Assembly: GCA_000091205.1 (NCBI GenBank)
Contig: AP006485.2
Length of the DNA stretch: 64,000 nucleotides
Strand: one strand, 5' to 3'
From: Cyanidioschyzon merolae
Taxonomy: Eukaryota
Under the pieces are notes generated by a model. The model made no database searches. It was given only the letters and a program-made list of their open reading frames with translations, and was not told the origin of the DNA. The translations under genes were made by a program, and so were the position numbers. Below, piece after piece: positions 1 to 18,125 of this stretch. How positions within the stretch are numbered: the stretch's first letter is position 1; each line of letters begins with the position of its first letter.

Positions 1-369
1 CCCCCCATTCCCCCCATTTACCTCCAACCCACGCACTTCACGCACTTCCCCATTAACGCGATGATCCCAGTGCCAATGCATATGTGATTATGACTTCTAT
101 CTCTCAAAATTCATTACTGATCCGTCTTCGGCGGTACGATCTGAGCGCGTACGCATCTGTTATATCTCCATCTGGCATTCCATGATCATTACTGTTTTAC
201 CTCCAGCTTTTTTGTTTTTGGTTTTGACAGAACCTCTACACTGCCCAGACGGCCGTGACCTCCGGATCGATAATCGTTTCAGGAAATCAACCGTTCCGCT
301 GAATAGTTTCTTCAGCTTCCGTTGTATTTACTTAATCTCGGCTTTATTGATCTAGTCAGGCTTTTTATT

Positions 370-775: not shown

Positions 776-1518
776 TTCCTATTGAAGTTTACTGTAGTTT
801 GCGATAGTGCTTGCTATCCCCTTTGTGGGTAATTTTTTTGCATTCTCTTCGTCGCGCACCTGTTAATGACTTATCCTGAAATTTGGCCGTCACATCACAC
901 CACGTGCTTCTCGCCGATCAAGAGAAACCTGCTAATGACCTCTTCTGGAGCGACTGTTTTATCCATCGCGGCCACTTTTATTTTGCGATCGGGTCGTAGC
1001 AAAATATAGTTTTGGCTTCAATGGCGTTTCAATCTTCAAGTAAATGTTCTCAGCTGATTTTCGCTGCTCAAAGTAGAGGTCTTCAATGAGTTTTTCTCCT
1101 AAAAAATTAGACTAATGTAATTGGGGGAGTGGGTTTGGGGTGGCCGGTATTGTGTATTTCAGAATGAAACGTGACTTAGTGCCGATCGAAGAGGATCAGG
1201 AAAAAAAGAAGATGCAACATGGGGAGGTCTTACATTGAAGGCTTCAATAGTGACGTCTGTACGACGAGATGGTGGTGGAATCCTATCTTTTCCTACATAT
1301 CAATGATCCTTACCACTCAATGTTGCGAGACGTTATCAGAAACAGTGTCGGTTCGTACGCCATGTATATTTTTAACTTTTCTTGAAGACTGCGGCGTTTG
1401 GAGAGCGAGCTGCATCGGGACGTGACGCACACCGCGAAGGTGATGTTTCCGGAAGATTTTTCACAATAGACTTACATCAACCACCTGATTGTTTTTAATG
1501 GGAAAACATCGGGGATAA

Positions 1519-1893
1519 ATGAGCGAGTGCATGCCTTCCTCAAAAATTACGCCAAATACCTCGTCAGCGATGCTGAACGAGGGGGTGACGCCGACATTTT
1601 TCGAATACAGGGCAATGAGGTGCCTTACGAAAGTGAGGAACCATAAGATCGTAAACCTCGATTGTTTCATGAAACGCGTCGTCTTTGCGCTGTACCCGGG
1701 CCCGTTTCGCAAAGGGATGCTGGCAATCATCGATTGCAAGAAGAGCGATCGCCAGCATGAACAGGAGATCAGAATCGTCGACAAGAGGACATCAAACAGG
1801 AGAAAGAATCTTGCTTTCGTTATCCGCGCCACTATTCTAAAACATCGTTCGGTCTTGGGTCATGTCATCCCAAGTGAAAACTGTCAGATATGA
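1519..1893 (+). pseudogene. ORF-A companion protein remnant (copy C)
   Basis: 'FMKRVVFALYPGPFRKGMLAIIDCKKSDRQHEQEIRIVDK' aligns with ORF-A of copy B ('FMIRAVFALYPGISRKGIWAMINGVTNDRKYEDEIEFVDK'). An upstream in-frame stop breaks the N-terminal part. The TGA stop overlaps the next ATG (ATGA at 1890). Confidence 0.55.
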
Positions 1894-3306
1894 TCAAAGA
1901 AGACGAAGAGAGAATTTACTCCCTCATCTTGCCACACCTCATTTTTTCGGACAGAGAACACGCACGCAAGGCCGACATGGAGCAGAGTGCAGAAAAAATG
2001 ACGGGTGGGAGTACCGACATTGAAGGCCTTCTCCAGATGCGATTCATTGTGGTTCAGTTATGCGAGTTCAATTCATATTCTGTGAATATCGACTCTAGAG
2101 TCCTTTACGCCTTCACGAAATAGATCGGTCCAGAGCTCGATGTAAACTACAAAGAGATCACCGGCGAAGACCGGGACACCCTGGTAGAATATCTTCGATT
2201 TCAAGCGTCCCAAACCGGCCAAAGAAAGGTACTCACGGGGGCCATCGATTACGATGTGGTATACATAAACCTACACTCTCAGGGGTTGAAGGCACGTCGT
2301 CCTATCCCGTCTTCGTTATCTCACTTGCCGAAGCGCGTACACAAGAAGACGGGCGATGGAACGTATAATGCCCACGAAATCGTCTTTCTCTGCGGCCTTA
2401 ACCCCTTGAATACGAATATCATCAGCATCGCTGCTCCCAGGCGTGCGGAAGGTGGTACTGACGGCAACATGCCTCAGAAAGACCTGTTTTTGTTGGTGTT
2501 CTCGAGAGCGAGATGGTATCGGGAATCCGGGAGATTGAGTGCGAGGATGGACATCGACCCGTGGAGTGCAACAGTTAAGGATAACCCGGAAACTTTGAGC
2601 GAGGTGACATGCCCAAGAGCGGACTCTCTAGTTTTTTGGATATTCAAAGAAGTTCGCGTTGCACACTGGGATGCGCTGTGCAAGGAATACTCAAAGCCAC
2701 GGTAGACTCGTTTGCAAATGAATCTACGCGGTGGGAGGCAGCATGCATTTGCGAATTTCTTCAATCAGTTGAGCGCCTTGAAGGAGAATGAACGTCAGTG
2801 GCTCGTATTAGCATACGGAGCATGGCGCTGGAAGACCCAAAAAGGGTGTACACCAGCTCCAACGACTAGGGTGTACAAGGGGTGCGCAAGGCGTTTCGTT
2901 ACGATACCTGTAGATGAGTTCCGAACATCGTATACACACCATGAACTGGGTTGTACACTTCAGAGAATGGAGATTGAAAAGTGCCAGTGGAGCCCTGAGG
3001 ATGTGAAAACTACGGACCGCTGACAGAAGAGCAAACGGAAAGGAAAGCGATAGTTCGAGGGCTACTTGCATAAGTACCACCAACGGCAAGAACCGGAAAG
3101 AGTTTTTGAACCGAGACTTTAACGCCGCTATCAATAAAAGTAGATGTGCGGTACTAGAGAAAAGTCCTCCAGAATGGACAAAAGAGAACTTTCTAAGAGA
3201 ACCTCTCAAAGTCGAACTATATGAGAAACAATTGGAAGCAGTAATAGGTGTCCGGTCCAAAAAGACTGGGAGGCGTCTGCACTTCAGTTGGAGACGTTTC
3301 GTCTAG
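1890..3306 (+). pseudogene. TnpB/Fanzor-like RuvC nuclease, frameshifted (copy C)
   Basis: Pieces 1890-2123, 2256-2705, 2712-3023 and 3106-3306 lie in three frames. They carry 'GLNPLNTNIISIAAPRRAEGGTDG' (RuvC-I), '[31 protein letters not shown]' (RuvC-II plus Zn finger) and 'MNRDFNAAINKSRCAVL' (RuvC-III). Confidence 0.65.
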
Positions 3307-4015
3307 GGCGGACCGGTCGCCGCTACTGCACTATGCCGACGTCGTTCCGCTTTAGAACGGCGTTTGGCTGTGGGTGCAACTTTTCGACGTCATGCTTTCC
3401 AGTGCAGAAGGAGTAAAATTGTGCCACTGTAATCCATTTCTGCTTCTCTGCCGTCTGCGCCAATTCTGGATCATGTATCACTGTGGATGATATTTTGCGT
3501 TTTGAGAAAGTGTGGTTTACTGCTAAGGTTCATCTCTTTCCATGAATCAGTTCCTGAATGCGTTTACGCCACAGCTCCAAGTGTCAAGCAACAGAGCTGA
3601 CCGCTAACATCCACGACTGCGGAAACGGTCTAGAGGAGTCGTTTGCGCCCTGGCACAATCAACCACATCTCCAAGCTTCAATGTACTTGACTCACGGATC
3701 GCGAATTCTCATGTGCCCTGCATGTGCTGCTATGATCATCAACCAATATATGCACAACCCAATCTTGTTCTCAGATTATTTTCTTCACCGGTTTTTTCGA
3801 ATGCGCTCATATATAGATCCGGCTTCGCATATTCAGGTGCAGGACTCATGCCGCCTCCGTGATCCACGTGCTTAGCAGTATGTTGTCGAAGGCTTTTACG
3901 CAGTGAACCATACATTATTACCATTGCTTTGATAAGAACCTCAGCAGGTAGGCCTCGCAGCTTATGTTGTATCCCATATGCTAGTTGCGCCTGTACTCTA
4001 CGTCAAACTGGATGC

Positions 4016-6433
4016 TCAGCAGGCAGCACCTATAACAATCACGCGAGCCTTCTCCAATATTTGCGCTGCACTTGCGTATATGCGGTAGAGCCTTTCCGCG
4101 TACGGCATGATAGACGCAGTACTGTCTGAACCGAGCGCTGAACCGCACATGGTGCGCAGCACATCTACCCGCGCAGGCCATAGCACAGCGTGGGCGACCT
4201 CTTGCGAGGCGTACGTGCCGTAGCAGCTTACGAGTAGACCATCAACCACGAGGCGTCCGGAACGCGTTAGTGGCGCATAGACTCCCTCACGCGTTACATA
4301 AGTGTCGATCGCGACGACAGGGTCCGCTCTATGGGCAGCGGCATCGAGAAGGGCGTCGCCTATGCGTATATGTTCTGCAAAAACTGCCTCGAGGGCGAGG
4401 CTCTCCAGCTCGGGCCTCTGATGTATTGTCTGCTGGTGACGTAAAAGATCTGAAAAAGGGGTCATCCCAAAATCCCGGACTCTCATGCTTGCGTGCATAC
4501 GGTACACTAAATGCTGACTCGTCAAGCGCAACTGCTTCCCTGATAACGTCTTAATAAGTAGGACCTCCGCGGTTGCGCCAGGCTCTTTGTGCAACCATCC
4601 AAGTATAGTATCCTCTAGCAGCTGTCCACTTCTATCGGCCCCAATCACACTCATACCCGAGCGCAACTCACTCATCGGCCGAATACTGCCCAGACGATCG
4701 ATCAGCACAGTGGCATCCTCCGGGAAGCAGATCGTGGTGCCGCCATTGATAGGAATTTTCGTGACATTCGCTGCTGTGGACGGTGTCGCTGAGAGTGATG
4801 GAGTCGCCGACGCAGTCGGTGTCGCTGTAGGCGTTGAGGTTGAGGTTGGTGTCGGCGTCGGTGTCGGCGTCGGTGTCGGCGTCGGTGTCGGCGTCGGTGT
4901 CGGGGAAGGGGTAATCATTGATTCGCTGAGCATGAATATATCATTGAGCTCTCCCTTTCCTTCACTTGTGTTCGAGTATCCGAATCCTCCGAACAGTATC
5001 ATGCCGCTTTCAGTTGTATTCCAGAGAGCAGATCCATACCGAGCACCGGGAACGACGCTGGGACTGAAAGTCCTAAACATTCCGTAATCAGCGGGGGCAT
5101 TAATGACTGCGCTACCATTGATCCAAGCCCACTGGCGCTGCTCCACGTTAAACAACCAAAGATCGTTCAGATCGCCGCTTTCGCTACTACTGTTCCCGTA
5201 CCCTTCACCACCAAAAAGCTGTAGATTTCCTGAAGCGTCAATGAAGCCAACTCCATACTCGCGGGATCCAGGATAGCTTGCAGCATCGGTATTGCCAAAT
5301 ATGATATACGATCCAGGGATCGAGATCGTGGTATTGCCTGCGACAAACGTCCATATGGACGTACTAATGTTATAAAACCAAAGATCATTCAAAAATCCTG
5401 GATAAGATTCCGAACCATTTCCATAACCAAACCCACCAAACATCCACAGATTGGCTTTTGAATCCGTCCATGTAATTGCACCCTGGCGAGCTCCGGGAGC
5501 ATTCGATCTATTGGCAATATCAGGTTCACTGTAATTGCCAGGCTGGTTTACCGATTGTGACCCACCCATATATGCCCACAGTGATAAGGATCTGTTGAAG
5601 CACCAAAGGTCTGAAAACAGGTACGAATAGCAATTCTCACCTCCAAACAACCAGAAGTTTCCATCTGCGCCCAGCCAGAACGCTGCCTTTAAGCGAGCCC
5701 CAGGGTTGTAAGAGGGATCGTAGGAACCCATTGGCCCGTACGTGGGTAAGGCATTGATTGTATCGTTGCCGTCTACCCAGGTCCAGTTTCCACTAACTGT
5801 GTCGTACTGCCACATGTCGTTAAGGCAACCGATATTACCATTTCCATCCAATCCGTAGCCTCCAAACAACCAGAAATGCTCCTCGTCTGCACGCCAGAAT
5901 GCACTGGCCTCCCTTGCGCCCGGAATATTGAGGGCGCTTCCGACTCCAAGTGTACCATAGTTTCCAGGCACATAAATGTCCATAGATCCGCCGATCCATG
6001 CCCACTCGAGCGAGGTAACGTTCAGTCTCCACAGATCGTTAAGATAACCTCCAGAGGAGTTCGCGTATCCAAAGCCACCAAAAAGGTACAAAACGCCGGG
6101 GCTTCCAACCCAGGTCGAGGAGTAGTGGCGACCGCCTGGGACGTTATTCGAGGACGCCACGTTCAGCGTACCATACTTCCCATAATTGTTGACACTAGTT
6201 TCTCCACCTATCCAGGTCCACCGCACGGGATAAGCCGGTGCCCCTGCGCCTACCAAAACCCAAATACGGGCCGAGAACCACAAACAAACGACCAAAACAC
6301 GCAGCCAGAGTACCCGCCTGAGACTACTCCGCCTCAAGCCTCCTTTCATAGGTGAATCTTGTCTTCGTACAGCTCGGGAAGCTCGCCCAAAAGCGTGTCC
6401 AAAGAAGGAAATCGCCGGCTTCAGAACACGCAA
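4016..6433 (-). CDS. Secreted Kelch-repeat / Thr-Pro linker / Hint-domain (Hedgehog-type 'Hog') protein; the true start is probably the Met of 'MKGGLRRSSLRRVLWLRVLVVCLWF' near 6349
   Basis: Single ORF of 805 aa with an N-terminal signal peptide, repeated 'WLFGG / LFGGFGY' kelch or galactose-oxidase-like blades and a (PT)n linker. The C-terminal Hint domain reads 'CFPEDATVLIDRLG...TSQHLVYRM...GVYAPLTRSGRLVVDGLLVSCYG'. Confidence 0.8.
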   Translation of the reverse strand: MRVLKPAISFFGHAFGRASRAVRRQDSPMKGGLRRSSLRRVLWLRVLVVCLWFSARIWVLVGAGAPAYPVRWTWIGGETSVNNYGKYGTLNVASSNNVPGGRHYSSTWVGSPGVLYLFGGFGYANSSGGYLNDLWRLNVTSLEWAWIGGSMDIYVPGNYGTLGVGSALNIPGAREASAFWRADEEHFWLFGGYGLDGNGNIGCLNDMWQYDTVSGNWTWVDGNDTINALPTYGPMGSYDPSYNPGARLKAAFWLGADGNFWLFGGENCYSYLFSDLWCFNRSLSLWAYMGGSQSVNQPGNYSEPDIANRSNAPGARQGAITWTDSKANLWMFGGFGYGNGSESYPGFLNDLWFYNISTSIWTFVAGNTTISIPGSYIIFGNTDAASYPGSREYGVGFIDASGNLQLFGGEGYGNSSSESGDLNDLWLFNVEQRQWAWINGSAVINAPADYGMFRTFSPSVVPGARYGSALWNTTESGMILFGGFGYSNTSEGKGELNDIFMLSESMITPSPTPTPTPTPTPTPTPTPTPTSTSTPTATPTASATPSLSATPSTAANVTKIPINGGTTICFPEDATVLIDRLGSIRPMSELRSGMSVIGADRSGQLLEDTILGWLHKEPGATAEVLLIKTLSGKQLRLTSQHLVYRMHASMRVRDFGMTPFSDLLRHQQTIHQRPELESLALEAVFAEHIRIGDALLDAAAHRADPVVAIDTYVTREGVYAPLTRSGRLVVDGLLVSCYGTYASQEVAHAVLWPARVDVLRTMCGSALGSDSTASIMPYAERLYRIYASAAQILEKARVIVIGAAC

Positions 6434-7249
6434 CGAACGATCGCAAGACTAGACGTTTTCAATGACTGCAGCCACGTGCGTTGCGCGCGCAACGTTGGAA
6501 ACGCACGTTGCGCAACGCATGCAGCCGGTTCTGATCTCGAGATGCATGCGAGCACTTGAACCTGAACTATGTGGACCAATATAGAATGTAATGGACATTT
6601 ATGCACATGGACCAATCATCCAAAAGTTTGTTTCGATCTGCTACTGGTGGGATCCTGTACTAAACGGTACACATGGGACACCAACCAAGATGCACTAAAG
6701 GCCTTGGACTTGAAATGGAACAATCATGTCCTATTATTGTGTAAAAACGAATACGATGCATCATAATGCCAAAGTTCGGTTCCAAAGAGTCGCAGCAGCA
6801 CGCCCCTTGGGGCAGCCTGCAGCTGCCCCGATGCGCGAGCGCAAATGCGCGCATTCCGGGCAGCGGCGGTGTTGGCAATACGAAACAGTGGCGACATTTG
6901 TGTAAAGAGCGTCGAGGCGCCATCGTGGCGTCGGACACGTGTGCTTCATCGATCTGAGTAGCGTCTCGCGCGGTGCGCGCATCGCGCTCGGTGAGCGTCC
7001 CTGGGAGGTCGGGTAGTCAACGGACGCGACGCACTTGTCGCCGTTGAAGGGAAATGTGATCCTCAGGATTCGTTGGCGTGTTGTTCTAACATAAAACTTG
7101 TATTTGTATTGCAATCGTAACAAAATATATGGTTTCATCTCAGTCATGTTGCAGCCCTCAAGTAAAAATACTGGAGTGTTTTTTTCGCAGTATACAACAG
7201 GAACCTTCAAAGAGGGTTCTTTCTCAAAAAAAAACTAAAAAGGAAAGCT

Positions 7250-8042
7250 ATGAAAAAGCAAGTCCACGATCCTGGAGGTCCAGGGTCGGCGGCTGCTAGA
7301 AAAAAAACAAAAGACGGTGCCGAGTTCATAAGAAAAGGAAGAGAAAAAGAAGCAAAAATGGGAGGCCCTACGTAGAAGGCGGCAAGAAAGACGACCGCAC
7401 TACGAGGTTGTGGTGAAAACCTGTCTTCTTGGACATATCAAGGATCCCTACATGGAAAAGTTGCGAGACATTATCGAAAAACGTGTCGGCTCGTACTCCA
7501 AGAGCATTGTCAATGCGTCGTCAGGACTAATGCATTTGGTGAGGGAGATGTACCACGAAGTTACGCACATGGAAACGGTCGAGGTACCCTGACGGGTTTT
7601 TCGATAAGACTTTACTCATCACCTGATGCTTGGTACAGAGGAAACGCGGAAGGAAAATGAGCTAGTAAATGCCTTCCGCGAGAAACATCCCTTTTACAGT
7701 TTCGAGGGTACTCGATACAAGGGTGAACGGGATATTTACACTTACGAAGCGATGAAGTATCTCACGAATCTGCAGAACCATTTGACAGCGGACCTCGAAC
7801 GTTTTATGATACGCGCCGTGTTTGCACTTTACCCGGGCATCTCTCGCAAGGGGATATGGGCGATTATCAATGGCATCACGAAAGATCGCAAGCGTGACAA
7901 TGAGGTCGAATTTGTCGACAAGAAGGCCTCACGCAGGAGCACAAATGAGGATTCCGTCATCCGTGCGGTTATACAAGCGCACCGGGCAATCTCGAGGCTG
8001 GCGAATCCAGCAGGCAAGATATCAGAGTTGAAAAAAAGATAA
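7250..8042 (+). pseudogene. ORF-A companion protein (copy A), frameshifted
   Basis: The conserved leader ATG at 7250 ('aaaggaaagctATGaaaaagcaagtccacgatcc') gives 'MKKQVHDPGGPGS...', a basic Lys-rich leader ending at TAG 7373. The body then lies in other frames (7410-7592, 7626-8042) with a +1 insertion relative to copy B. It retains 'YTYEAMKYLTNLQNHLTADLERFMIRAVFALYPGISRKGIWAIINGITKDRKRDNEVEFVDKK'. Confidence 0.55.
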
Positions 8043-8160
8043 AATGCTGTCGCCTCATTCTGCTCGATTTCGTATTTCTGGACCGAGAGCTCGAACGCAA
8101 AGCGGAGATGAAGCTGAGTGAGGAAAAAATGAAGAATGGGAGAGACGGAAGGCGTTCCTA

Positions 8161-9600
8161 ACGGGGAAGCGCTTCAACGGGGTTCCGTTGTGCAACATCA
8201 AGTCACATTTTGTGAGTACCGACTCCGGCGTCCTTTATGGCATCATGGTGGGGTTCAGTCCGGAGTTCAAAGTTAGCAGGGAGGACTTCACCGGCGAGAA
8301 CCGGGTGACGTACTGGAAGAGTATCTTCGATTTCAAACCTGTAAAAGTCAGCAAACAGAAGGTATTCACTGGGTTGATCGAAACCGATGGAGTAGCCTTG
8401 TGCGTACACTACCGGCGGTTGAAGAAAGATCGGCCAGTCCCTCCCTTGGCTGCGCCCGTGACGAAGGATGCAGAAAACAAAGAGGCGGATGCTGCGACGC
8501 ACAGAGTGCAGGATAACGACTTTATTGTTGACGCGGCGAAGGATGACGATGAAAAGGAGGCGGTTCCTGAGACGGAGGAGATGGAGGATGACGACTTTGC
8601 GGTTGGCGCGGTGAAGGATGAAGAAAAGAAGGAGGCGGTTCCTGCGATGCAGGAGGTGCAGGATAACGACCTTGTCATTGGCACGGTGAAGGATGAAGAA
8701 AAGAAGGAGGCGGATCTTGAGACGCAGAAAGTGCAGGATAACGACTTTGTCGTTGGCGCGGACCCTGGAAATACGAATATCATCACCATCGCAGCACCGA
8801 AGCGTGCTGAAGATGGCACTGACGGTAACTTACGTCAGAAAGACATGCGTCTTTTAAGATTCTCGAGAGCGAGATACTACCGGGAATCAGGAACCATGAA
8901 TGCAAGGAAGAGAATCGAAACATGGAATGCCGGAAGAAAGGATCTCCTGGAAGCCTTGAGCGAGGTGACTAACCGAGGAGCGGACTTTGAAGCTTTTCGG
9001 AAACTCATGAAAGTTCGCGTTGCTCATTGGGATGCGCTGTGGGAGAAGTATACCAAGCCTCGGTGGGCTCGTCTGCGTATGAATCTATACGGTGGGAAGC
9101 AGCGGGCGTTTGCCAACTTTTTCAATCAGTTGAGTGCCCTCAAATAGGACAAGACTCAAAGGCTCGTAGTAGCAAATGGGGCAGGGCGATGGAAGACCCA
9201 AAAAGGCTGTACACCAGCTCCAACGACGCGAACGTACAAAGAGTGCGCAAGGCGTTTCGTTACGATACCTGTAGATGAGTTCCGAACATCGTATACACAC
9301 CACGAGCTGGGTTGTACACTTCAGAGAGTGGAGATGGAAAAGTGCTAGAGGAGCCCTGAAGATATAGTAAAGTATGGACCTCTGACGGAGGAACAAACGA
9401 AAAGGATGCGAAAGTTCGGGGACTACTTGCATCAGCATGTACAACCAGTGATGGCAAGAAACGTATGGAGTTTGTGAACCGAGACTTTCATGCCGCTATC
9501 AATGTCAGGAGATGTGCGGTGCTGCAGACGAGAACTCCAGAGCTGACACGAGAGAACTTTGTTGGACAACCTCTCAAAGACGAACTATATGAGAAAAATG
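8161..9600 (+). pseudogene. TnpB/Fanzor-like RuvC nuclease (copy A), disrupted
   Basis: Homologous to 16784-18025. The start codon is ACG, there is an in-frame TAG at about 9143, and there are more stops downstream. An internal ~84-nt tandem expansion is listed separately below. Confidence 0.7.
8455..8750 (+). repeat. Roughly 84-nt in-frame tandem repeat (about 3.5 units) inside the copy A nuclease ORF
   Basis: The repeating protein unit is 'KDEEKKEA(V/D)...[12 protein letters not shown]', and copy B has a single unit. The array ends at the RuvC-I motif 'GADPGNTN'. Confidence 0.7.
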
Positions 9601-9730
9601 GGAAGCAGTAGTAGGCAGCCGGCCGAAAAAAAAAGCCGGGAGGCGTCTGCATGTCAGTTGGACACTTTTCATGTGGGCGCCGGTCGCACTGCAGTAAACG
9701 CCCGACGTCGTTCGAGTTAGAACGGCGTTT
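9600..9730 (+). ncRNA. Conserved non-coding 3' tail of family 1 element (candidate omega-RNA / right-end region)
   Basis: 'gggaggcgtctgca..tcagttgga.ac.ttt...gggcg.ccggtcgc..ctgca.ta.cgcccgacgtcgttc.gtt.agaacggcgttt' is conserved between copies A and C and, more diverged, copy B, while the flanks are unrelated. Confidence 0.35.
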
Positions 9731-10700: not shown

Positions 10701-12767
10701 CTATAACTTGCGCAGAGCATCGACCGGCGCAGGCCACAACGCAGCATATGCCACGGCATGCGATGCGGACATCCCGTAGCAGCTCACCAGAATACCGTCG
10801 ACGACAAGGCGCCCTGAGCGAGTCAATGGCGCATAGAGACCATTGTGCGTAACGAAAGTCTCGATTGCCACCAAGGGGTCTGGCAGGTGCGCCGCAACAT
10901 CCACTAGAGTGTCGCCAATGCGTATATCTTCCGCGAGATCTACCTCAATGGCAGAGGTACCCAGCTCAAGCCTCTGACGTATTTGCCTCTGCTGCTGTGG
11001 CTGATGCTTCCCTGAAAGAGAAGAAGCTGTGGTCGTAACACTGTAAAAGTCTCTAGAGTGTCCAAGCATCCGATATACGAGATGCTGCCTCGTCAAACAC
11101 AGCTGCTTTCCGGAGAGCGTCTTGATCACCAGAATCTCCGCAGTAGCGCCGGGCTCGTTATGCAACCATCCTAGTACACTATCATCGACCAGTTGCCCAC
11201 GTCCATTGACCCCGATCGCGGCCATACCTGATCGAAGCTCGCTTATCTGCAGACTGTTGCCCAGACCATCGATCAGTACCGAGGCATCCGCGGGGAAGCA
11301 GACCGCAGAGCCTTCGCCTACAGCGGTCTGCGTCACATTTGTCGTTGCCGCCGGTGCTGCAGTAACGGAGCGTGTCGGTGATGCCGTCGGAGTCGGTGTT
11401 GCGGTCGGCGTAGGCGTCGGTGTTGCGATGTATAATGTGAAGAGGTCGTTATAGATACCTGAGCTTCCTTGGCCTCCGAACAGGACCGGGTCGTTTTGAT
11501 CGGTATCCCAAAGAACTGCATCAGCTCGCGGAGGTGGAAGCGTTGTATTGCTTGTCTTGTTAAGCTCGCCGTAACTATAGGCTCCATCTGTTGTATTGTC
11601 ACCGTCTACCCACGCCCATTCGAGACTCGTAATATTGAACGTCCACAGGTCGTTGCAGAGACCAGGTGAATAACCACCGAAAAGATACAGGGTGTTTGTC
11701 GAGTCTACGAATCTAGAGGAACCAGCTCTGTACCCGGGACTGTTATACGATGAGAGCACTCTTTTGTCGCCGAAAACTGACTCATTCGAGCCAACGCTAC
11801 CATCTCCAGATATCCAGGCCCATGCTCTAGAGCTGATATTGAAGAGCCACAAATCATTCAGAAAGCTGCGAATTCCGATACTCAGTCCTAGACCACCAAA
11901 GAGCCAAAAGTTGCCAGCAAGGTCTTGCCATGATGCGGCTCCGGAACGTCCAGCGGGATAGTTGCTCGGTGATGTCTGCCGAAACGCACCATAACTTCCA
12001 GAGGCAATCTGCTATTCAGTCCCTTCAATCCATCCCCATTCGTTGGTCACTATGCTGCACTACCACTAGTCACCGTAATATGCACCATTAGGACTAGATC
12101 CACCAAAGAGATAAAACTGGCCAGCCAAACCAACCCAGGTGGCGGGTAAGAAACGAGTGCCGGGCGTATTGTTCGAAGACGACTTCCCAAGAGTGCCATA
12201 TGTAGGGGAAATAATGGTCTTGTCGAAGCCCTGCACCCATGTCCACTCGCTCGACGATACATTATACATCCACATATCACAATACCCCGAGTTCAAATTC
12301 CGGCCTCCATATAACCAAAGGTTTCCGTAGCTGTCGCTCCATGCAGCGAGTTGCCTCCTCGAGGGCGGAGCGTTGCTCTCTTTGGGAACTCCGAGGAAAC
12401 CTTATACCCCTGCAAGGTTGGGGGATACAGAGCCTCCAACCCAGGTCCAAGTCTACGCGCTCAGATTGTAGTACCAGAGATTATCAACGACGCCACTCGG
12501 GACGCGACCACCAACCAACCAGAGCACTACGTCAACGCCGGTCCAGGAAGCCGCACCGTGCTGCGCCGGAGGCACGTTGCTGCTGTTTGGTACACCCTGA
12601 ACATCGTAGCTAACCGCGCTACCGGTAGAGTTACTAATGCCGATCCAGGTCCATAAAAAAGTATTCACGGCCGAAAAATCCCCTTGAACTGTGTGCATAT
12701 AAGACACAACCAAGATTACAACTAGGTGTCTCACTGCAGAAAAATCTCGTATTCGGATTTGAAACAT
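10701..12767 (-). pseudogene. Second Kelch-(TP)n-Hint 'Hog' paralog, interrupted by in-frame stops and frame breaks
   Basis: The signal-peptide start is 'MFQIRIRDFSAVRHLVVILVV' (12767) and kelch blades 'FYLFGGSSPNGAYYGD' and 'FWLFGGLGLS' follow. Two adjacent in-frame TAGs ('ggtgacTAGtggTAGtgc', about 12077-12085) and one more interrupt the frame, and 12296-12453 is frame-discontinuous. The intact 3' part 10701-11852 carries the TP linker and Hint domain 'CFPADASVLIDGLG...GLYAPLTRSGRLVVDGILVSCYG'. Confidence 0.6.
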
Positions 12768-13334
12768 GGAAGGCGTTCTGCATGAGAAAAGAAAGCGCTA
12801 TTCAGAGAAAAGAGTTGCTTAGGATCTGTTGGAACAGAGGAGCCCCAACTGCTGTAACTGCTGCCTCTATCCCTACCACTACTGTTCTCCAGAGAGAGTT
12901 CTGAGGTAAGCAGCACGAGAGCGCGTCAAGCACCGCCATCTATATGACGAAGAAGTGCTCACGACTGCCCCGCATACCCGTTCCATGCATCCAGGAGGAA
13001 TGATGCAGATAGCTGCTCTACAGCACACCAATCAAACAATATGTCTTACCGCACACAGCGCAAAGCTGGAGTACGCAAGCGGCACGCATGTGCGCGAACT
13101 GCCCAATACAATCTGTCCTTTAAATCTCAATCCAAAGAATGATACTGTCTATCTTTCCAACCGATCCCGACCATACACATATACCACTGTAACCATCGAA
13201 ATTTGTAGAGCCCCCTACGAGACGCATGCACTGTTGCATACAGCAGAAGGACTTTGCTGCTCACTGATAGCCATCGATCCGCTCCACGCTCAATACGCGA
13301 GTCGATCGACTGTTCATAGAAATAAAAAAGCTCA

Positions 13335-15206
13335 TTACACTGTGGAGAAGGCGCTCGCAGACGTCGACACAGAAGCTGAAACTGAAGCACTCGCGGATAC
13401 ACTCACAGAAGCTGTCGCAGAGGCCGTCGCAGAGACTGTTGCAGACACCGTCGCAGAGGGTGTCGCTGTCACAGCCACGGGACTCGGAGTCGGTGTTGGA
13501 CTAATGACCACACATTGGTTGTTGATGCACTCCTCGTCAGCGCGGCAGCAACGAACCTTGTTCACAAGGTTATCCGAAGGGATCAGGTACGTCCCGCACT
13601 GCTTCGTAGGGTCCTTGCACACACAGAACGACGGCAGCAGCACCTGTTGTTGCTGCTGTTGTTGCAATTGCTGCTGCTGCTGCTGGTTGTTGTTGTTGCT
13701 GAACGGGTTGTACGTGCAGTTCTGCGTCTCGGCGTTGCAGCACTCCGGGCCACACGGAATATAGCTCGAGTTCGATACGTTGCCGGTCGTGCCGCTCAGC
13801 GAGTTCGACACATACCCGTAGGTCTGGCACACGTACTCGGTCATCGGCTGGAAGCACTCGTTGCTGAGCCCCAGGCAGCAACCAGCCTCCAGACACTGCT
13901 GCGGCGAGTAGCTCGTGCGCTGCGTCCCGTGCTGCTCCCCGTACAGAAGCGTGTTCAGCAGACGCACAAACTGGTTATTGTTGATGTTATTGTTCAGCTG
14001 CTGGTTCTGATTCACCGCGTTCGTGCACGGCTGGCGCTCAAACTCGCCCACCGCGCACGTCTTCACGGGCTGGAAGCAGTACGGGTTCGACTCAAAGTCG
14101 CTCTGCTGCTTGCCGTTCTGCACCCACTGGTTCTGCGCCTGCGAGTCGTAGCAGCAGCCCTGGGCATAGCACGTAAACTGGTTGATGCCCGCGTTGCCGC
14201 ACGGCTGGCGCTGCGCTCCCGGTGACGGGCAGAGGGGAACCGGTGCCTGCACCTCCTGCAGCGCTACAGAGGCCTGCGGTGCATGGTTGATGTCGTAGTA
14301 GCACCAGGGTGCCAGGATGCCGTTCGCTGTGGGCTGCCAGCAGCATCCCGGTATCGCAGTGCACTCGTCGGGGTAGATATAGCTCCAGCCGCAGGGGACG
14401 CGCTGTGTCACTGGAACAGCGCTGCAGGCCGCTGAGACGCTCTTCAGGGTGCACGCGTTCGTCTGGGCGTTGAAGCAGCATCCGACTTGCTCGCAAGCGT
14501 CCTGGTTTGTGTACTGGCCCGGAGAACCGCAGATTTCACTCGTGCAAACTGGTGTTGGCGTTGCACTCGGTGTCGGGGTTATAATAGCAAGTGTCGCACC
14601 AGAGGGTAGAATTGTAGAAAGCAGGTCGGTGAAAGTTTGAAGCACAATTTGCAGTTCACTGGCGAGGGATGTGTCTCCTGAGATCTTAATCACATAGGTC
14701 ACAACACTGCCGCCCGAAGTGCGCACCAATGCTCGTTCCAGACGAGGATTGCTCTTGTCTAATGTGGTGGCGAGGCGCCTTGATGTACCCGAACCGAAGA
14801 CCGTGTCGCAGTTATCAGTCACGCTAACATTCACTTCCAGGCCTATGAAGCGAGCCTCGAGATCGTTCTGCAAATCCGTCGCCACGGCCAAACAAAGAGA
14901 AAGATTCTGAACGGATATCGCAATCGAGGTGGAAATCGTCGTCGGCACGATTGTTGGTGACGTTGTTGTAGTCGGTGTCATCGTAGGCGTCGGCGTCGGT
15001 GTCATCGTCGGCGTCGGTGTCATCGTCGCTGACACCGATGGAGCCACCGAACTTGTTGGTGACAATGTTGCAGTCGCTGTCATTGTCGATTGTGCTTCGG
15101 CCCCTAGCGTGGCACACCCAACAGCAAGCGACAGAGCTGCGACCAAGACGAACAACTGTTTACACAGTTCGCCGAAGTTGCGATATTTTCCTGCTCCTGG
15201 TCTCAT
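13335..15206 (-). CDS. Secreted multi-trefoil (P-domain) glycoprotein with TP/ST-rich, poly-Q and poly-N regions
   Basis: There is a signal peptide 'MRPGAGKYRNFGELCKQLFVLVAALSLAVGC' (ATG at 15206). Trefoil signatures include 'RVPCGWSYIYPDECTAIPGCCWQPTANGILAPWCYY' and 'RQPCGNAGINQFTCYAQGCCYDS...NPYCFQ', with two more degenerate units and (TP)n/(ST)n linkers. Confidence 0.7.
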   Translation of the reverse strand: MRPGAGKYRNFGELCKQLFVLVAALSLAVGCATLGAEAQSTMTATATLSPTSSVAPSVSATMTPTPTMTPTPTPTMTPTTTTSPTIVPTTISTSIAISVQNLSLCLAVATDLQNDLEARFIGLEVNVSVTDNCDTVFGSGTSRRLATTLDKSNPRLERALVRTSGGSVVTYVIKISGDTSLASELQIVLQTFTDLLSTILPSGATLAIITPTPSATPTPVCTSEICGSPGQYTNQDACEQVGCCFNAQTNACTLKSVSAACSAVPVTQRVPCGWSYIYPDECTAIPGCCWQPTANGILAPWCYYDINHAPQASVALQEVQAPVPLCPSPGAQRQPCGNAGINQFTCYAQGCCYDSQAQNQWVQNGKQQSDFESNPYCFQPVKTCAVGEFERQPCTNAVNQNQQLNNNINNNQFVRLLNTLLYGEQHGTQRTSYSPQQCLEAGCCLGLSNECFQPMTEYVCQTYGYVSNSLSGTTGNVSNSSYIPCGPECCNAETQNCTYNPFSNNNNQQQQQQLQQQQQQQVLLPSFCVCKDPTKQCGTYLIPSDNLVNKVRCCRADEECINNQCVVISPTPTPSPVAVTATPSATVSATVSATASATASVSVSASASVSASVSTSASAFSTV

Positions 15207-15877
15207 GCTTCTAGAGCTAAGAACTTCTTGTCGACACTAGGTTTTTGTGAATACTTATTTCTTACAGCTGCACCGGTTGCTGAGATGTTTTGTCGCACCG
15301 CGAGTTTCGCTATCTCTCTGGCTACGAAACAGCCCAGTCGGCTACCGAGCGCTGTGTGAAGAACACCAACGCAGCGGCGATAGCGCCTGTGAAAAAATTT
15401 AAAACGCGCAACATGCCTCGAAGCCGCGGCAATCGATGATCACGGCGAAGGAGAAACGGTTCGAGACGATCCCTGCAGGCGCGGTTTCGATTTCGCGTTT
15501 CGCGCCAAAAGCGATTGCGCAGACGTGTCCCCGAGCGAGCTCTGGTTTGCTTCATTATCGGCGTGGGGCACGTGTCCTTCATCGATCGGCGTAGTGTCCC
15601 GCGAGGCGCACGCATCGCGGTCAGTGAGCGCACCTCGGAGATCGAGCAGTCAACTGACGCGACGCGCATGGCTCCGTTGAAGGGAAACGCGGTTGGGATC
15701 AATAGCATGTTGTTCTACCGGAAAAAGTTGGATTTCCGTTCAGGTCGTAGCCAAGTACAGTCTTTCAGTTCGTTTCTGTTTGAAACTTCAAACAAGTCTA
15801 GTCAAGTGTTTTTCGTGGTTTATAGTAGACGCGTTCGTACCGCGTTCGTTCGCAAAAAAAACAAAAAAAGGAAAGCT

Positions 15878-16545
15878 ATGGAAAAGCAAGTCCACGATCC
15901 TGGAGGCCCAGGGTCGCCGGCTGCCAGAAAAAATACAAAAAACAGTGCCGAGTCCAGAAGAAAAGGAAGAGAAAAAGAGGCAAAAGGGGGAGGCCCTACG
16001 TTGAAGGCGGCAAGAAAGACGACTGTACGACGAGAAGGTGGTGAAACCCTTTCTTCTTGGACATATCCGTATGGGAAAAGTTGCGAGACGCTATCAAAAA
16101 ACGTGTCGACTCGTACTCCATGAGTATTGTCAAGACGTCGTCAGCACTGATGCATTTGGTGAGGGAGATGTATCGCGACGTGACGCACATGGAAACGGTC
16201 GAGACTCCGGACGGGTTTTTCGATAAGACATTTATTCGTCACCTGATGCTTGGCACAGGGGAAGCGCGGAGGGAAATTGAGCTAATGCATGCCCTCCACG
16301 AAAACTTCGCAGAATTCCGCTTCGAGGGTACCCCATTCAGGGGTGACCCGGATATTTACACATATGGGGCGATGAAGTACCTCACGAACCTGAAGAACCA
16401 TTTGACAATGAACCTCGAACTTTTCATGATACGCGCCGTGTTTGCACTCTACCCAGGCATCTCTCGGAAAGGAATATGGGCGATGATCAACGGCGTCACG
16501 AACGATCGAAAGTATGAAGATGAGATCGAATTTGTCGACAAGTAG
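15878..16545 (+). CDS. ORF-A companion protein of family 1 element (copy B); leader and body are in different frames and the C-terminus is truncated by a TAG
   Basis: Leader ATG at 15878 gives 'MEKQVHDPGGPGSPAARKNTKNSAESRRKGREKEAKGGG...' in frame 2 up to 16123. The main conserved frame 16057-16545 reads 'EKLRDAIKKRVDSYSMSIVKTSSALMHLVREMYRDVTHMETVE...YTYGAMKYLTNLKNHLTMNLELFMIRAVFALYPGISRKGIWAMINGVTNDRKYEDEIEFVDK*'. Copy A has AAG where copy B has the TAG stop. Confidence 0.55.
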
Positions 16546-16783
16546 GTGCCAAACGAGAGCACGAATGAAGCCTCTGTAATCCGTGCGGTTATACGAGAGC
16601 ACCGTGCAGTCTTGGGGCTGGCGAATCCAACAGACAATATCAGAGTTGAAAAAAGATAAGGAAAGATACTATCGCCTCGTCCTGCGGTATTTTGTGTTTC
16701 TGGACCGAGAGCTCGAACGCGAAGCGGAGATGAAGCTGAGTGAAGAGACAAATGATGAGTAGGAGATACGGACGGCTTTCCTA

Positions 16784-18025
16784 ATGGGTAAGCGCTTTAA
16801 CGTGGTTCCAATGTCCAATATCAAGTCACATTTTGTGACCATCGACTCCGCGGTCTTTTACGGCATCATGAAAGAGATCAGTCTGGAGTTCAGTGTCAGC
16901 AGGGAGGACTTCACCGGCGAAAACCGGGAGACGTACTGGAAGAGTATCTTCGATTTCAAACGCCTCAGAGTAAGCAAACAAAGGGTATTTACTGGGTTGA
17001 TCGAAACCGATGGAGTATCCTTGTGTATAGACTATCGGCGGTTGAAGAAAGATCGTCCAGTTCCGCCCTCGGCTGCGCCCGTGCCGAAGCATGAAGATGA
17101 GAAGGAGGCGGATCTTGAGACGCAGAAAGTGCAGGATAACGACTTTGTCGTTGGCGCGGACCCTGGAAATACGAATATCATCACCATCGCAGCACCGAAG
17201 CGTGCTGAAGATGGCACTGACGGTAACTTACGTCAGAAAGACATGCGTCTTTTAAGATTCTCGAGAGCGAGATACTACCGGGAATCAGGAACCATGAATG
17301 CAAGGAAGAGAATCGAAACAGGGAATGCCGGAAGAAAGGATCTCCTGGAAGCCTTGAGCGAGGTGACTAACCGAGGAGCGGACTTTGAAGCTTTTCGGAA
17401 ACTCATGAAAGTTCGCGTTGCTCATTGGGATGCGCTGTGGGAGAAGTATACCAAGCCTCGGTGGGCTCGTCTGCGTATGAATCTATACGGTGGGAAGCAG
17501 CGTGCGTTCGTCAACTTTTTCAATCAGTTGAGCGCCCTCAAGGAGAATGAAAATCAGAGGCTCGTAGTAGCAAATGGGGCAGGGCAATGGAAGACCCAAA
17601 AAGGATGTACACCAGCTCCAACGACGCGAACGTACAAAGAGTGCGCAAGGCGTTTCGTTACGATACCTGTAGATGAGTTCCGAACATCTTATACACACCA
17701 CGAGCTGGGGTGCACACTTCAGAGAGTGGAGATGGAAAAGTGCCAGAGGAGCCCTGAGGAAACAGCAAAGTACGGACCGCTGACGGACGAGCAAATGGAA
17801 AGGAGGGCGCAAGTGCGGGGATTGCTTGCATTAGTACGTACAATCAATGGCAAGAAACATATGGAGCTTGTGAACAGAGACTTTACCGCCGCCATCAATA
17901 TAAGGAAATGTGCGGTGCTGGAGGAAAGACCTCCAGAGTCGACACGAGAGAACTTTGTTGGACAACCTCTCAAAGTCGAACTATATGAAACAAAGTTGGA
18001 AGCAGTAGTACATGGCCCGCCGTGA
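16784..18025 (+). CDS. TnpB/Fanzor-family RNA-guided-type RuvC nuclease (413 aa, intact ORF)
   Basis: ATG at 16784. Motifs are RuvC-I '[21 protein letters not shown]', RuvC-II '[31 protein letters not shown]' (the E, then H/H/C/C residues in place of a C4 Zn finger) and RuvC-III '[20 protein letters not shown]'. The size and motif order match TnpB/Fanzor2-like proteins. Confidence 0.8.
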
Positions 18026-18125
18026 AATGCTAGGAGACGTACGCACATCGTCGAAAACGCTTCGTCCAGGGCGCGTCACTCGCTACTTCTGTACAACGCT
18101 GGCGTCGCTCGACTCTAGGTTTGCA
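18026..18125 (+). ncRNA. Family 1 3' tail (copy B), candidate omega-RNA region
   Basis: 'gctaggagacgtacgca...gggcgcgtcactcgctacttctgtacaacgctggcgtcgctcgactctag' aligns with the tails of copies A and C. Confidence 0.3.

Follow-up and report, generated by a model that had tools for sequence, protein, structure and literature searches.

A subtelomeric gene for a predicted secreted trefoil protein of the KTH family in Cyanidioschyzon merolae, a red alga

In a preliminary description of this stretch of DNA (64,000 nucleotides, hereafter the window), a 623-aa open reading frame at 13335..15206 was read as a secreted, mucin-like protein carrying four trefoil (P-type) domains, which raises the question of whether a unicellular eukaryote encodes genuine relatives of the animal trefoils and, if so, what they might do there. 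The frame is a real minus-strand gene with an ATG start, and the core of that reading, a mucin-like extracellular protein with bona fide trefoils, is supported. The host is the red alga C. merolae 10D. Earlier publications already contain this gene, CMC005C, with its annotation as a trefoil protein, the family to which it belongs, the subtelomeric duplication of that family, the gene's diploid-biased expression, and the idea of acid protection. For a genome scan little is thus gained, and some of the results may be of use to workers on C. merolae. Added here are the purifying selection on the cysteine-rich cassette, the invariance of 35 of its 36 cysteines, the replacement by proline of the Asp/Asn with which trefoil factors (TFFs) contact sugar, and the exchange of a Kelch propeller for another module, termed module X.

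The locus and the layout of its protein

The proteins encoded beside CMC005C are exact matches to C. merolae 10D records, and the coordinates of the window are those of NC_010129.1; the window covers the left end of chromosome 3 in this strain. The annotation in the supplement of PMC13353863 gives the CMC005C coding sequence as NC_010129.1:13335..15206(-), names it "similar to trefoil factor", and places it in the class "KTH variants: T", which rules out an unannotated gene. The features discussed below are as follows.

1..20, no strand: telomere-like repeat CCCCCCATT at the chromosome end, read from the sequence
4016..6349, minus strand, as CMC005C: CMC002C, a K+Hog gene
10701..12770, minus strand, as CMC005C: decayed K+Hog copy
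13335..15206, minus strand: CMC005C (BAM78956.1), complete intron-less coding sequence of 623 aa with ATG start, from the open reading frame and the published GFF
15096..15206, minus strand: signal peptide region, aa 1-37, with hydrophobic core at aa 17-35, LFVLVAALSLAVGCATLGA
14925..15089, minus strand: mucin-like stretch rich in T, P, and S, aa 40-94 (40% T, 18% P, 16% S)
14577..14924, minus strand: module X, aa 95-210, orphan domain of about 115 aa in the place of the Kelch propeller of paralogues
14451..14546, minus strand: unit 1 (U1), aa 221-252, truncated and trefoil-like, C-x4-C-x11-C-x4-CC-x7-C
14301..14426, minus strand: unit 2 (U2), aa 261-302, canonical trefoil (P-type) domain by sequence, C-x10-C-x9-C-x5-CC-x12-C
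14076..14231, minus strand: unit 3 (U3), aa 326-377, trefoil with a long third loop (x24), C-x9-C-x9-C-x4-CC-x24-C
13854..14057, minus strand: unit 4 (U4), aa 384-451, marginally trefoil-like, C-x9-C-x43-C-x4-CC-x6-C
13716..13829, minus strand: module 5, aa 460-497, five cysteines, unassigned, cysteines invariant across three genera
13644..13697, minus strand: poly-N/Q tract NNNNQQQQQQLQQQQQQQ, aa 504-521, evident on inspection of the sequence
13512..13625, minus strand: module 6, aa 528-565, seven cysteines, unassigned, six of the seven invariant in four sequences from three genera
13338..13511, minus strand: C-terminal low-complexity tail rich in S/A/V/T(P), aa 566-623 (S 29%, A 22%, V 19%, T 17%)

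The repeat at 1..20 is presumably the C. merolae telomere unit, so CMC005C would be subtelomeric, and like other KTH genes it adjoins further K/T/H genes. The Kelch-like reading frames downstream of it belong to the separate decayed K+Hog copy and are not its remnant. A reading of CMC005C as what remains of a disrupted Kelch+Trefoil gene was rejected on account of its own ATG and signal peptide, and is also contradicted by an environmental contig (L006) that shows this arrangement at 97.5% DNA identity. The transposon reading frame at 16784..18025 returned no match in Pfam, NCBIfam, or PDB sequence searches.

From its N-terminus, CMC005C consists of a signal peptide, a T/P-rich stalk, module X, a TP linker, a disulfide-rich cassette, and the S/A/V/T tail. 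Secretion, as first described, agrees with the published table in the supplement of PMC13353863, where SignalP 6.0 assigns SP(Sec/SPI) and counts zero transmembrane segments, and aa 17-35 form the sole cluster of strongly hydrophobic 15-mers in the protein. A hydrophobic GPI-type tail was looked for at the C-terminus and not found (Kyte-Doolittle hydropathy averages 0.79 over the final 20 aa). The TP/ST-rich stretches noted at the outset (aa 40-94 and 566-623) are indeed there, and so are the asparagine- and glutamine-rich tracts: poly-N at aa 399-412, and the poly-N/Q tract at aa 504-521, which differs in length between paralogues and is not present in Cyanidium. The stretch at aa 40-94 is probably an O-glycosylation stalk, judging by its composition, and corresponds to the Thr/Pro/Ala linker of the published family description; together with aa 211-220 it supplies the Thr/Pro(/Ala)-rich linkers between modules that characterize KTH proteins.

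Two solid trefoils within a conserved cassette

The Pfam Trefoil model (PF00088, gathering threshold 21 bits) matched the whole protein at 49.9 bits (E 2.8e-13) over three stretches, and the best PDB sequence matches were human TFF3 and TFF1, porcine spasmolytic polypeptide, and the maltase-glucoamylase and sucrase-isomaltase trefoils (E 1.9e-5 to 2e-2). On these scores the trefoil signal lies well above chance. The claim of four trefoil domains stands for two units and fails for the other two at the Pfam threshold. U2 scored 45.7 bits (E 6e-12, model positions 1-42 of 43) and U3 31.4 bits (E 1.8e-7, positions 1-43; 32.7 bits for the U3 of Cyanidium). U1 reached 18.1 bits over model positions 12-33 only, with 21.8 bits for its Cyanidium counterpart, and U4 reached 7.2 bits, or 17.3 once its poly-N insert was taken out by hand. 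That insert, which splits U4, is lineage-specific; the Cyanidium U4, which does not carry it, scored 12.9-14.2 bits, and all six U4 cysteines are invariant.

Cysteine spacing separates the units in the same way. Measured against a trefoil spacing of about C-x9/10-C-x9-C-x4-CC-x9/12-C, U2 agrees, U3 agrees with a long loop 3, and U1 and U4 do not. The refutation named in the preliminary description, spacing that fails the trefoil HMM, does not apply to U2 and U3. Beyond the cysteines, the signature includes an arginine three residues before Cys2, a glycine after Cys2, an aromatic residue after Cys4-Cys5, and a tryptophan before Cys6. U2 reads QRVPCG, GCCW, and PWCY at these places, while U3 reads QRQPCG, GCCY, and PYCF, with tyrosine instead of tryptophan, and all of these residues are invariant across the three genera. 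The alignment of U2 to TFF3 (6v1c; E 1.9e-5) revealed R-x-x-C-G, GCC[WF], and PWC[YF] in common. A PROSITE-type P-domain pattern, given low weight ([KRH]-x2-C-x-[FYPSTV]-x3,4-[ST]-x3-C-x4-CC-[FYWH]), had no match in CMC005C; U2 has five residues between Cys3 and Cys4, against four in that pattern. Profile-profile comparison with hhalign linked U1 to U3 (89% probability) and connected neither U4 nor modules 5 and 6 to the trefoils. Taken together, score and spacing indicate that only U2 and U3 are solid trefoils and that U1 and U4 are degenerate.

Modules 5 and 6 had been missed in the preliminary description; Pfam gave no match at E<=10 for the former and none for the latter. The cassette has six cysteine modules in all: two canonical trefoils, a degenerate pair that resembles trefoils, and two that match no family. 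Its AlphaFold2 model, built from a 9-sequence alignment, had a mean pLDDT of 47.8, too poor for a fold search or for reading off the three-loop fold and the 1-5, 2-4, 3-6 disulfides of a trefoil. A homology search with the whole protein returned only seven matches, since low-complexity words saturated the candidates, and was redone with a cassette-only alignment. The cassette is 95-97% identical to those of the C. merolae K+T paralogues, 77-79% to Cyanidiococcus, and 58-64% to Cyanidium, with 35 of 36 cysteines invariant across the three genera. Its dN/dS against environmental alleles is 0.09-0.10; the cassette is under purifying selection.

A separate origin of these units has been raised by the authors of PMC13353863, namely convergence under selection for acid stability without homology to animal trefoils, and they report TFF-like genes to be missing from Galdieria. 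Profile searches for a donor lineage likewise gave no specially close relatives outside Cyanidiophyceae, where the nearest matches were generic animal multi-trefoil proteins. Convergence nevertheless appears very improbable given that U2 covers 42 of the 43 Pfam positions and matches human TFF3 at the E-values above, that the shared non-cysteine signature (Arg -3 and Gly +1 of Cys2, GCC plus aromatic, PW before Cys6) is normally read as homology, and that P-type domain proteins were also found by profile search in the cnidarian Clytia and in environmental sequences, so that the premise of TFFs in vertebrates only is too narrow. The similarity of U2 and U3 to animal trefoils, at a level usually taken as homology, speaks against the published suggestion.

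Whether the ligand was retained is a different matter. TFF1-3 bind GlcNAc-alpha-1,4-Gal through two side chains, an Asp/Asn right before Cys2 and a Trp right before Cys6; in TFF3 the former is Asp20, a bidentate sugar contact (Asn in TFF1/2), and D20A abolishes binding (PMC7221086). In CMC005C the residue before Cys2 is proline in U2, U3, and U4 (alanine in the U2 of Cyanidium), while the aromatic side chain that stacks against the sugar in TFF3, just before Cys6, is kept as Trp in U2 and Tyr in U3. The pair of contacts found in TFF1-3 is therefore not present, the sugar specificity of vertebrate TFFs cannot hold for CMC005C, and the TFF analogy is not transferable to the identity of the ligand.

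Family context, module X, and expression

CMC005C belongs to the Kelch/Trefoil/Hint (KTH) genes, a subtelomeric family of Cyanidiales that was described by Nozaki 2007 (PMC1955436), Cho 2023 (PMC9812998), and Plant Cell 2026 (PMC13353863). The authors who defined the family class it as "KTH variants: T", and it shares orthogroup OG0000022 with ten further C. merolae genes. The other T-class gene, CMC186C (BAM79099.1, 816 aa), lies at the opposite end of chromosome 3. The C. merolae K+T paralogues, such as CME001C (BAM79243.1), share with it the cysteine cassette, T/P-rich linkers, subtelomeric position, signal peptide, and diploid-biased expression. They differ in carrying a Kelch propeller of about 470 aa, which CMC005C lacks, having instead module X behind its own signal peptide. 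The part that precedes this cassette varied: it was a Kelch propeller, a Kelch together with module X, or module X with either of two distinct signal peptides.

Module X has no Pfam or NCBIfam match, and no homologue was found among 5.8 billion proteins, a negative weakened by the fact that this collection does not contain the CMC005C sequence itself. It was found in three hot-spring metagenome loci at 95-97% identity and in three different N-terminal contexts. A single-sequence AlphaFold2 model (pLDDT 61.8) is alpha/beta, and at this model quality Foldseek against the PDB gave only non-significant, generic ferredoxin-like matches (best E-value 0.024); neither SEA nor other known alpha-beta sandwich domains gave a significant sequence or fold match. 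Its dN/dS of 0.46-0.66, from 8-10 differences, is weak evidence of constraint.

Published RNA-seq reported 4838/5160/4548 TPM (about 4,850) for CMC005C in walled diploid cells, whereas two haploid strains gave 26-30 and 49-52 TPM (logFC 7.7 and 6.8); its transcription is strongly diploid-specific. It is the highest in diploids among the ten KTH members retrieved and at least five-fold above each of the other nine (about 25-973 TPM). CMC005C is thus conspicuous among KTH members for both its expression and the uncharacterised module in place of the Kelch propeller. The adjacent CMC002C has the opposite ploidy specificity, being haploid-specific (2 TPM in diploids versus 207-343 TPM in haploids). 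According to the authors of the Plant Cell 2026 study (PMC13353863), TFF-like genes have their function chiefly in the diploid, walled phase and may guard against low pH. A wall location of the protein does not follow from high diploid mRNA alone.

Proposed role and comparison with known systems

On balance, a role for CMC005C as a secreted KTH component of the matrix or wall of the walled diploid stage, with its trefoils as stable binding units, is slightly favoured. The protein would be secreted through the Sec pathway, soluble outside the cell, and probably heavily O-glycosylated, and it would most likely belong to the cell wall or extracellular matrix that walled diploid cells make. Its compact trefoil modules, presumably resistant to acid and protease, could act as durable attachment sites, with glycans as probable partners in a lectin-type manner. 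They would fasten CMC005C to polymers of the wall or matrix at pH 0.05-4 and let it contribute to a protective surface layer. Against this stand the proline before Cys2 in U2-U4, so that lectin activity is putative, the weak evidence of constraint on module X, and the nickel-stress response reported for some KTH members in haploid cells, which hints at functions beyond wall building. A more ambitious form is doubtful. In it, CMC005C would be the chief glycoprotein in the wall or matrix of the walled diploid stage, which was discovered recently, module X would be a new lineage-restricted extracellular domain replacing Kelch function, and the trefoils would be truly homologous to animal P-domains and bind another ligand. 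Were it true, the trefoil lectin fold would have been in use on a cell surface facing acid either far earlier than animal mucosae or independently of them.

An equally doubtful alternative, framed by analogy with the yeast FLO/EPA adhesins, regards KTH genes as a fast-recombining repertoire for adhesion between cells or to substrates, or for recognition specific to stages of the sexual cycle, with CMC005C as the main diploid variant and not a structural part of the wall. The subtelomeric position, the shuffling of modules around one cassette, and the opposite ploidy specificities of CMC005C and CMC002C would fit such a repertoire, as would the reported H3K27me3 enrichment at subtelomeres and a Cyanidiococcus K+T protein whose Kelch part is closest to the Kelch of the neighbouring CMC002C (59.5%). 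However, CMC005C has no membrane or GPI anchor to stay on the cell, its cassette is conserved between paralogues and at a dN/dS of about 0.1, which sets it apart from the usual heads of variant adhesins, and it is not known to have an adhesion phenotype.

It is somewhat less likely again that the trefoils are mere disulfide-knotted spacers, acid- and heat-stable rigid segments with no specific ligand, and that protection comes from the glycosylated low-complexity regions. The loss of the sugar-contacting Asp/Asn from every unit, the degeneracy of U1 and U4, and the long variable inserts tolerated by U3 (in loop 3) and U4 (in loop 2) all point that way, but the non-cysteine positions of U2 and U3 (GW-YIYPDEC, IPGCCWQPT, APWC, GINxFTC) are conserved in three genera more strongly than a scaffold alone needs, and the aromatic before Cys6 is retained.

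Among known systems, vertebrate TFF1, TFF2, and TFF3 (PDB 6v1c, 6v1d, 1psp) share with CMC005C the P-type signature of six cysteines, including R-x-x-C-G, GCC-aromatic, and P-W-C-aromatic, and both are secreted and linked with mucin-like sequences in an acidic extracellular setting. TFFs are small secreted peptides, 60-106 aa long, that consist of one or two domains, whereas CMC005C has 623 aa, stalks, module X, and six cysteine modules, four of them (2+2) trefoil-type, with a longer loop 3 (x12 and x24). The N-terminal trefoils of GH31 alpha-glucosidases (maltase-glucoamylase and sucrase-isomaltase; 9kz6, 3lpo, 2qly), matched at E 1e-3 to 2e-2, are likewise P-type accessory modules of larger extracellular proteins, and these enzymes carry a glycoside hydrolase domain, unlike CMC005C or its paralogues. 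The yeast FLO/EPA genes are subtelomeric families of Ser/Thr-rich lectin adhesins, and as multigene families of secreted proteins with a mucin-like low-complexity stalk, a carbohydrate-binding-type head, and variation in modules and repeat length between copies they resemble KTH. CMC005C differs from them in having no sequence relationship and no GPI anchor signal, and in a binding cassette that is conserved rather than diversifying.

CMC005C and its family at the chromosome end

The 623-aa reading frame predicted at 13335..15206 is present on the minus strand with an ATG start. It is CMC005C (BAM78956.1), annotated as similar to trefoil factor; the gene and its family were already annotated and published before this analysis. 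The GFF in the supplements of PMC13353863 places it at NC_010129.1:13335..15206, minus strand, and the window numbering is therefore that of chromosome 3. The products of three neighbouring reading frames are identical to the 10D proteins BAM78958.1, BAM78960.1, and BAM78967.1, whose chromosome measures 481,791 bp. The first bases of the window (1-20) are CCCCCCATT repeats, which we take to be the C. merolae telomere unit in reverse complement; with this numbering, the window would thus be the left chromosome end.

Genes for "trefoil factor" (T) and "hedgehog" (H) were mapped to C. merolae chromosome ends by Nozaki et al. 2007 (PMC1955436). Genes with kelch (K), trefoil (T), and hint (H) domains were later reported as the most prevalent subtelomeric duplications in Cyanidiales, arranged as K, T, H, K+T, or K+H with Thr/Pro/Ala-rich linkers (Cho et al. 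2023, PMC9812998). C. merolae carries 15 genes resembling vertebrate trefoil factors (TFFs), 13/15 of which are expressed mainly in the walled diploid phase and for which low-pH protection of cells has been suggested (Plant Cell 2026, PMC13353863); CMC005C is not named in the main text of that study. Several trefoil-factor genes are induced in a nickel-stress transcriptome, in the paper on which CMC005C is not named.

Trefoil units of the cassette

The sole strongly hydrophobic segment of CMC005C is N-terminal (aa 17-35). A mucin-like T/P/S stretch (aa 40-94) and poly-N/Q tracts are present, in line with the preliminary description, and the S/A/V/T tail at aa 566-623 is real; a GPI-signal-type hydrophobic C-terminus was looked for and is absent. 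The Pfam scan proposed there gave 49.9 bits for PF00088 (Trefoil) against the whole protein (E 2.8e-13, three stretches; gathering cutoff 21). The closest solved structures by sequence, at E 1.9e-5 to 2e-2, are human TFF3, TFF1, and porcine spasmolytic polypeptide, together with the maltase-glucoamylase and sucrase-isomaltase trefoil domains.

Cysteine units of CMC005C, with Pfam Trefoil scores for each unit scanned singly
U1, aa 221-252: C-x4-C-x11-C-x4-CC-x7-C; 18.1 bits, model positions 12-33 only
U2, aa 261-302: C-x10-C-x9-C-x5-CC-x12-C; 45.7 bits, model positions 1-42 of 43
U3, aa 326-377: C-x9-C-x9-C-x4-CC-x24-C; 31.4 bits
U4, aa 384-451: C-x9-C-x43-C-x4-CC-x6-C; 7.2 bits, 17.3 without the poly-N insert
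U5, aa 460-497: 5 Cys; no Pfam family
U6, aa 528-565: 7 Cys; no Pfam family

Four trefoil units had been claimed, of which U2 and U3 hold while U1 and U4 fall below the cutoff. CMC005C thus combines two solid trefoils with two units that are trefoil-like but degenerate and with two other modules, and the initial interpretation was essentially right except for the number of good units. Profile-profile comparison linked U1 to U3 at 89% probability and gave no link of U4, U5, or U6 to trefoils. Cyanidium, which lacks the U4 poly-N insert and the poly-Q tract, scores 21.8 (U1, barely at threshold), 43 (U2), 32.7 (U3), and 12.9-14.2 bits (U4).

Module X and neighbouring elements

A Kelch propeller of ~470 aa precedes the cassette in all full-length paralogues retrieved; CMC005C carries in its place a signal peptide of its own, a stalk rich in T/P, and module X, of ~115 aa (aa 95-210). 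Neither Pfam nor NCBIfam gave a match for module X, and no relative appeared in a 5.8-billion-protein collection, a weak negative since that collection also lacks CMC005C. BAM78956.1 is absent from a 15-billion-protein collection although its neighbours are present; negatives there for the protein and for module X are hence weaker than they appear. Three hot-spring metagenome loci encode the module at 95-97% identity:

L004: Kelch C-terminus, long TP linker, X, TP linker, cassette
L005: different signal peptide (MKPSLFIICFILCSVFPSLVRA), TP linker, X, cassette
L006: arrangement as in the window, 97.5% DNA identity

Its occurrence in these three contexts rules out an artefact. Its dN/dS is 0.46-0.66, from just 8-10 differences. 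A single-sequence AF2 model has an alpha/beta arrangement (pLDDT 61.8), for which Foldseek against PDB returned generic ferredoxin-like matches only (best E-value 0.024).

Several further elements lie around the gene:

1178-3355, 6927-9730, ~15407-18118: three copies of a ~2.5-kb repeat, 65-93% identical, flanking the K/T/H genes
4016-6349, minus strand: CMC002C, Kelch propeller plus Hint module (K+Hog) without HhN domain
10701-12770, minus strand: second K+Hog frame, directly downstream of CMC005C
16784..18025, plus strand: intact 413-aa reading frame in the third repeat copy, not an annotated gene

The second K+Hog frame, missing from the v2.0 GFF (where CMC005C comes next after CMC002C), has five in-frame stops in its Kelch part (four TAG, one TAA) and is probably a decayed paralogue; the absence of indels over ~690 codons without frameshift is a little odd. 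The 413-aa product carries what look like TnpB/Fanzor RuvC motifs, with no match in Pfam, NCBIfam, or PDB sequence searches. Bao and Jurka in 2013 reportedly described a Fanzor1 element, CMe-1A, of ~3 kb and ~150 copies; the repeat is probably this element.

The Kelch of a Cyanidiococcus K+T protein (P0005) is closest to that of CMC002C (window 4916-6310, minus strand; 59.5%), and its trefoil part is 74% identical to CMC005C. These affinities would be expected if K, T, and H modules were shuffled among subtelomeric genes. The Cyanidiococcus gene likewise lies at a contig end. A JGI metagenome contig of 1559 bp encodes a predicted 389-aa protein (P0007) in which an N-terminus like ribosomal L39 is combined with a C2 domain, a Gly-rich stretch, and the C-terminal half of the cassette (90% identity); chimerism of the assembly or of the gene call is the likeliest explanation, a real fusion being still conceivable.

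Expression, origin, and proposed role

Published expression (TPM; supplements of PMC13353863)
CMC005C (T): diploid MS1 4838 / 5160 / 4548; haploid MS1 Ha3 27 / 30 / 26; haploid 10D 49 / 51 / 52
CMC002C (neighbouring K+Hog): diploid MS1 ~2; haploid MS1 Ha3 207-225; haploid 10D 236-343

The published logFC values of CMC005C in the diploid versus the haploids are 7.7 and 6.8. Eight orthogroup members (CMA001C, CMA142C, CMB162C, CMC186C, CMD002C, CMD191C, CME001C, CMJ005C) reach 134-973 TPM in the diploid, so CMC005C is the strongest expressed of the ten members compared, a set without CMR001C. The tenth, CMH282C (BAM79920.1, P0046; ~28 TPM), is the sole member seen without diploid bias; this 373-aa T paralogue from another chromosome lacks a signal peptide, carries Tyr at conserved Cys238 together with additional cysteines, and may have been truncated and be decaying. 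CMC002C, on the same strand at a distance of 7 kb, is haploid-specific, opposite to CMC005C.

CMC005C is a secreted protein, transcribed strongly in the diploid stage. With slightly better than even confidence, we would see it as O-glycosylated and associated with the matrix or wall, where acid-stable trefoil modules would attach to wall or matrix polymers through a ligand other than that of vertebrate TFFs. A variable subtelomeric adhesin or recognition protein would suit the location of the family, but seems unlikely beside the dN/dS of the cassette (aa 216-570), which at 0.09-0.10 against environmental alleles indicates purifying selection. The cassette is 95-97% identical to C. merolae and environmental K+T proteins of ~900 aa (e.g., CME001C/BAM79243.1), 77-79% to a Cyanidiococcus yangmingshanensis K+T protein, and 58-64% to Cyanidium caldarium K+T and T-only proteins. 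Its cysteines are invariant at 35/36 positions in four sequences from three genera and at 34/36 in eight sequences. A disulfide-knot spacer without binding is rather doubtful, given the aromatic residues retained at the ligand position.

Convergence of the cysteine-rich units, put forward as possible for the TFF-like genes (PMC13353863), is improbable: U2 matches the Pfam model at nearly full length, non-cysteine signature residues included, which favours homology without proving it. Searched exhaustively with a U2-U3 profile, 1.84 billion cluster representatives yielded 189 proteins at E<=1e-3. The best named matches beyond cyanidiophytes were proteins with several trefoils from the cnidarian Clytia hemisphaerica, a newt, and a pipefish, accompanied by unnamed environmental proteins, with no specially close donor lineage among them; the trefoil domain occurs beyond vertebrates.

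The TFF3 ligand GlcNAc-alpha-1,4-Gal is touched by two side chains only, Asp20 and Trp47, and mucin binding is abolished by D20A and by W47A; TFF1 and TFF2 have Asn at the Asp20 position (PMC7221086). In the TFF3 alignment, Asp20 directly precedes Cys2 and Trp47 directly precedes Cys6. CMC005C has Pro instead before Cys2 in U2, U3, and U4, and Cyanidium U2 has Ala, whereas the aromatic before Cys6 is kept as Trp in U2 and Tyr in U3. The trefoil scaffold and aromatic platform appear conserved with TFF3, and the specificity-determining contact does not.
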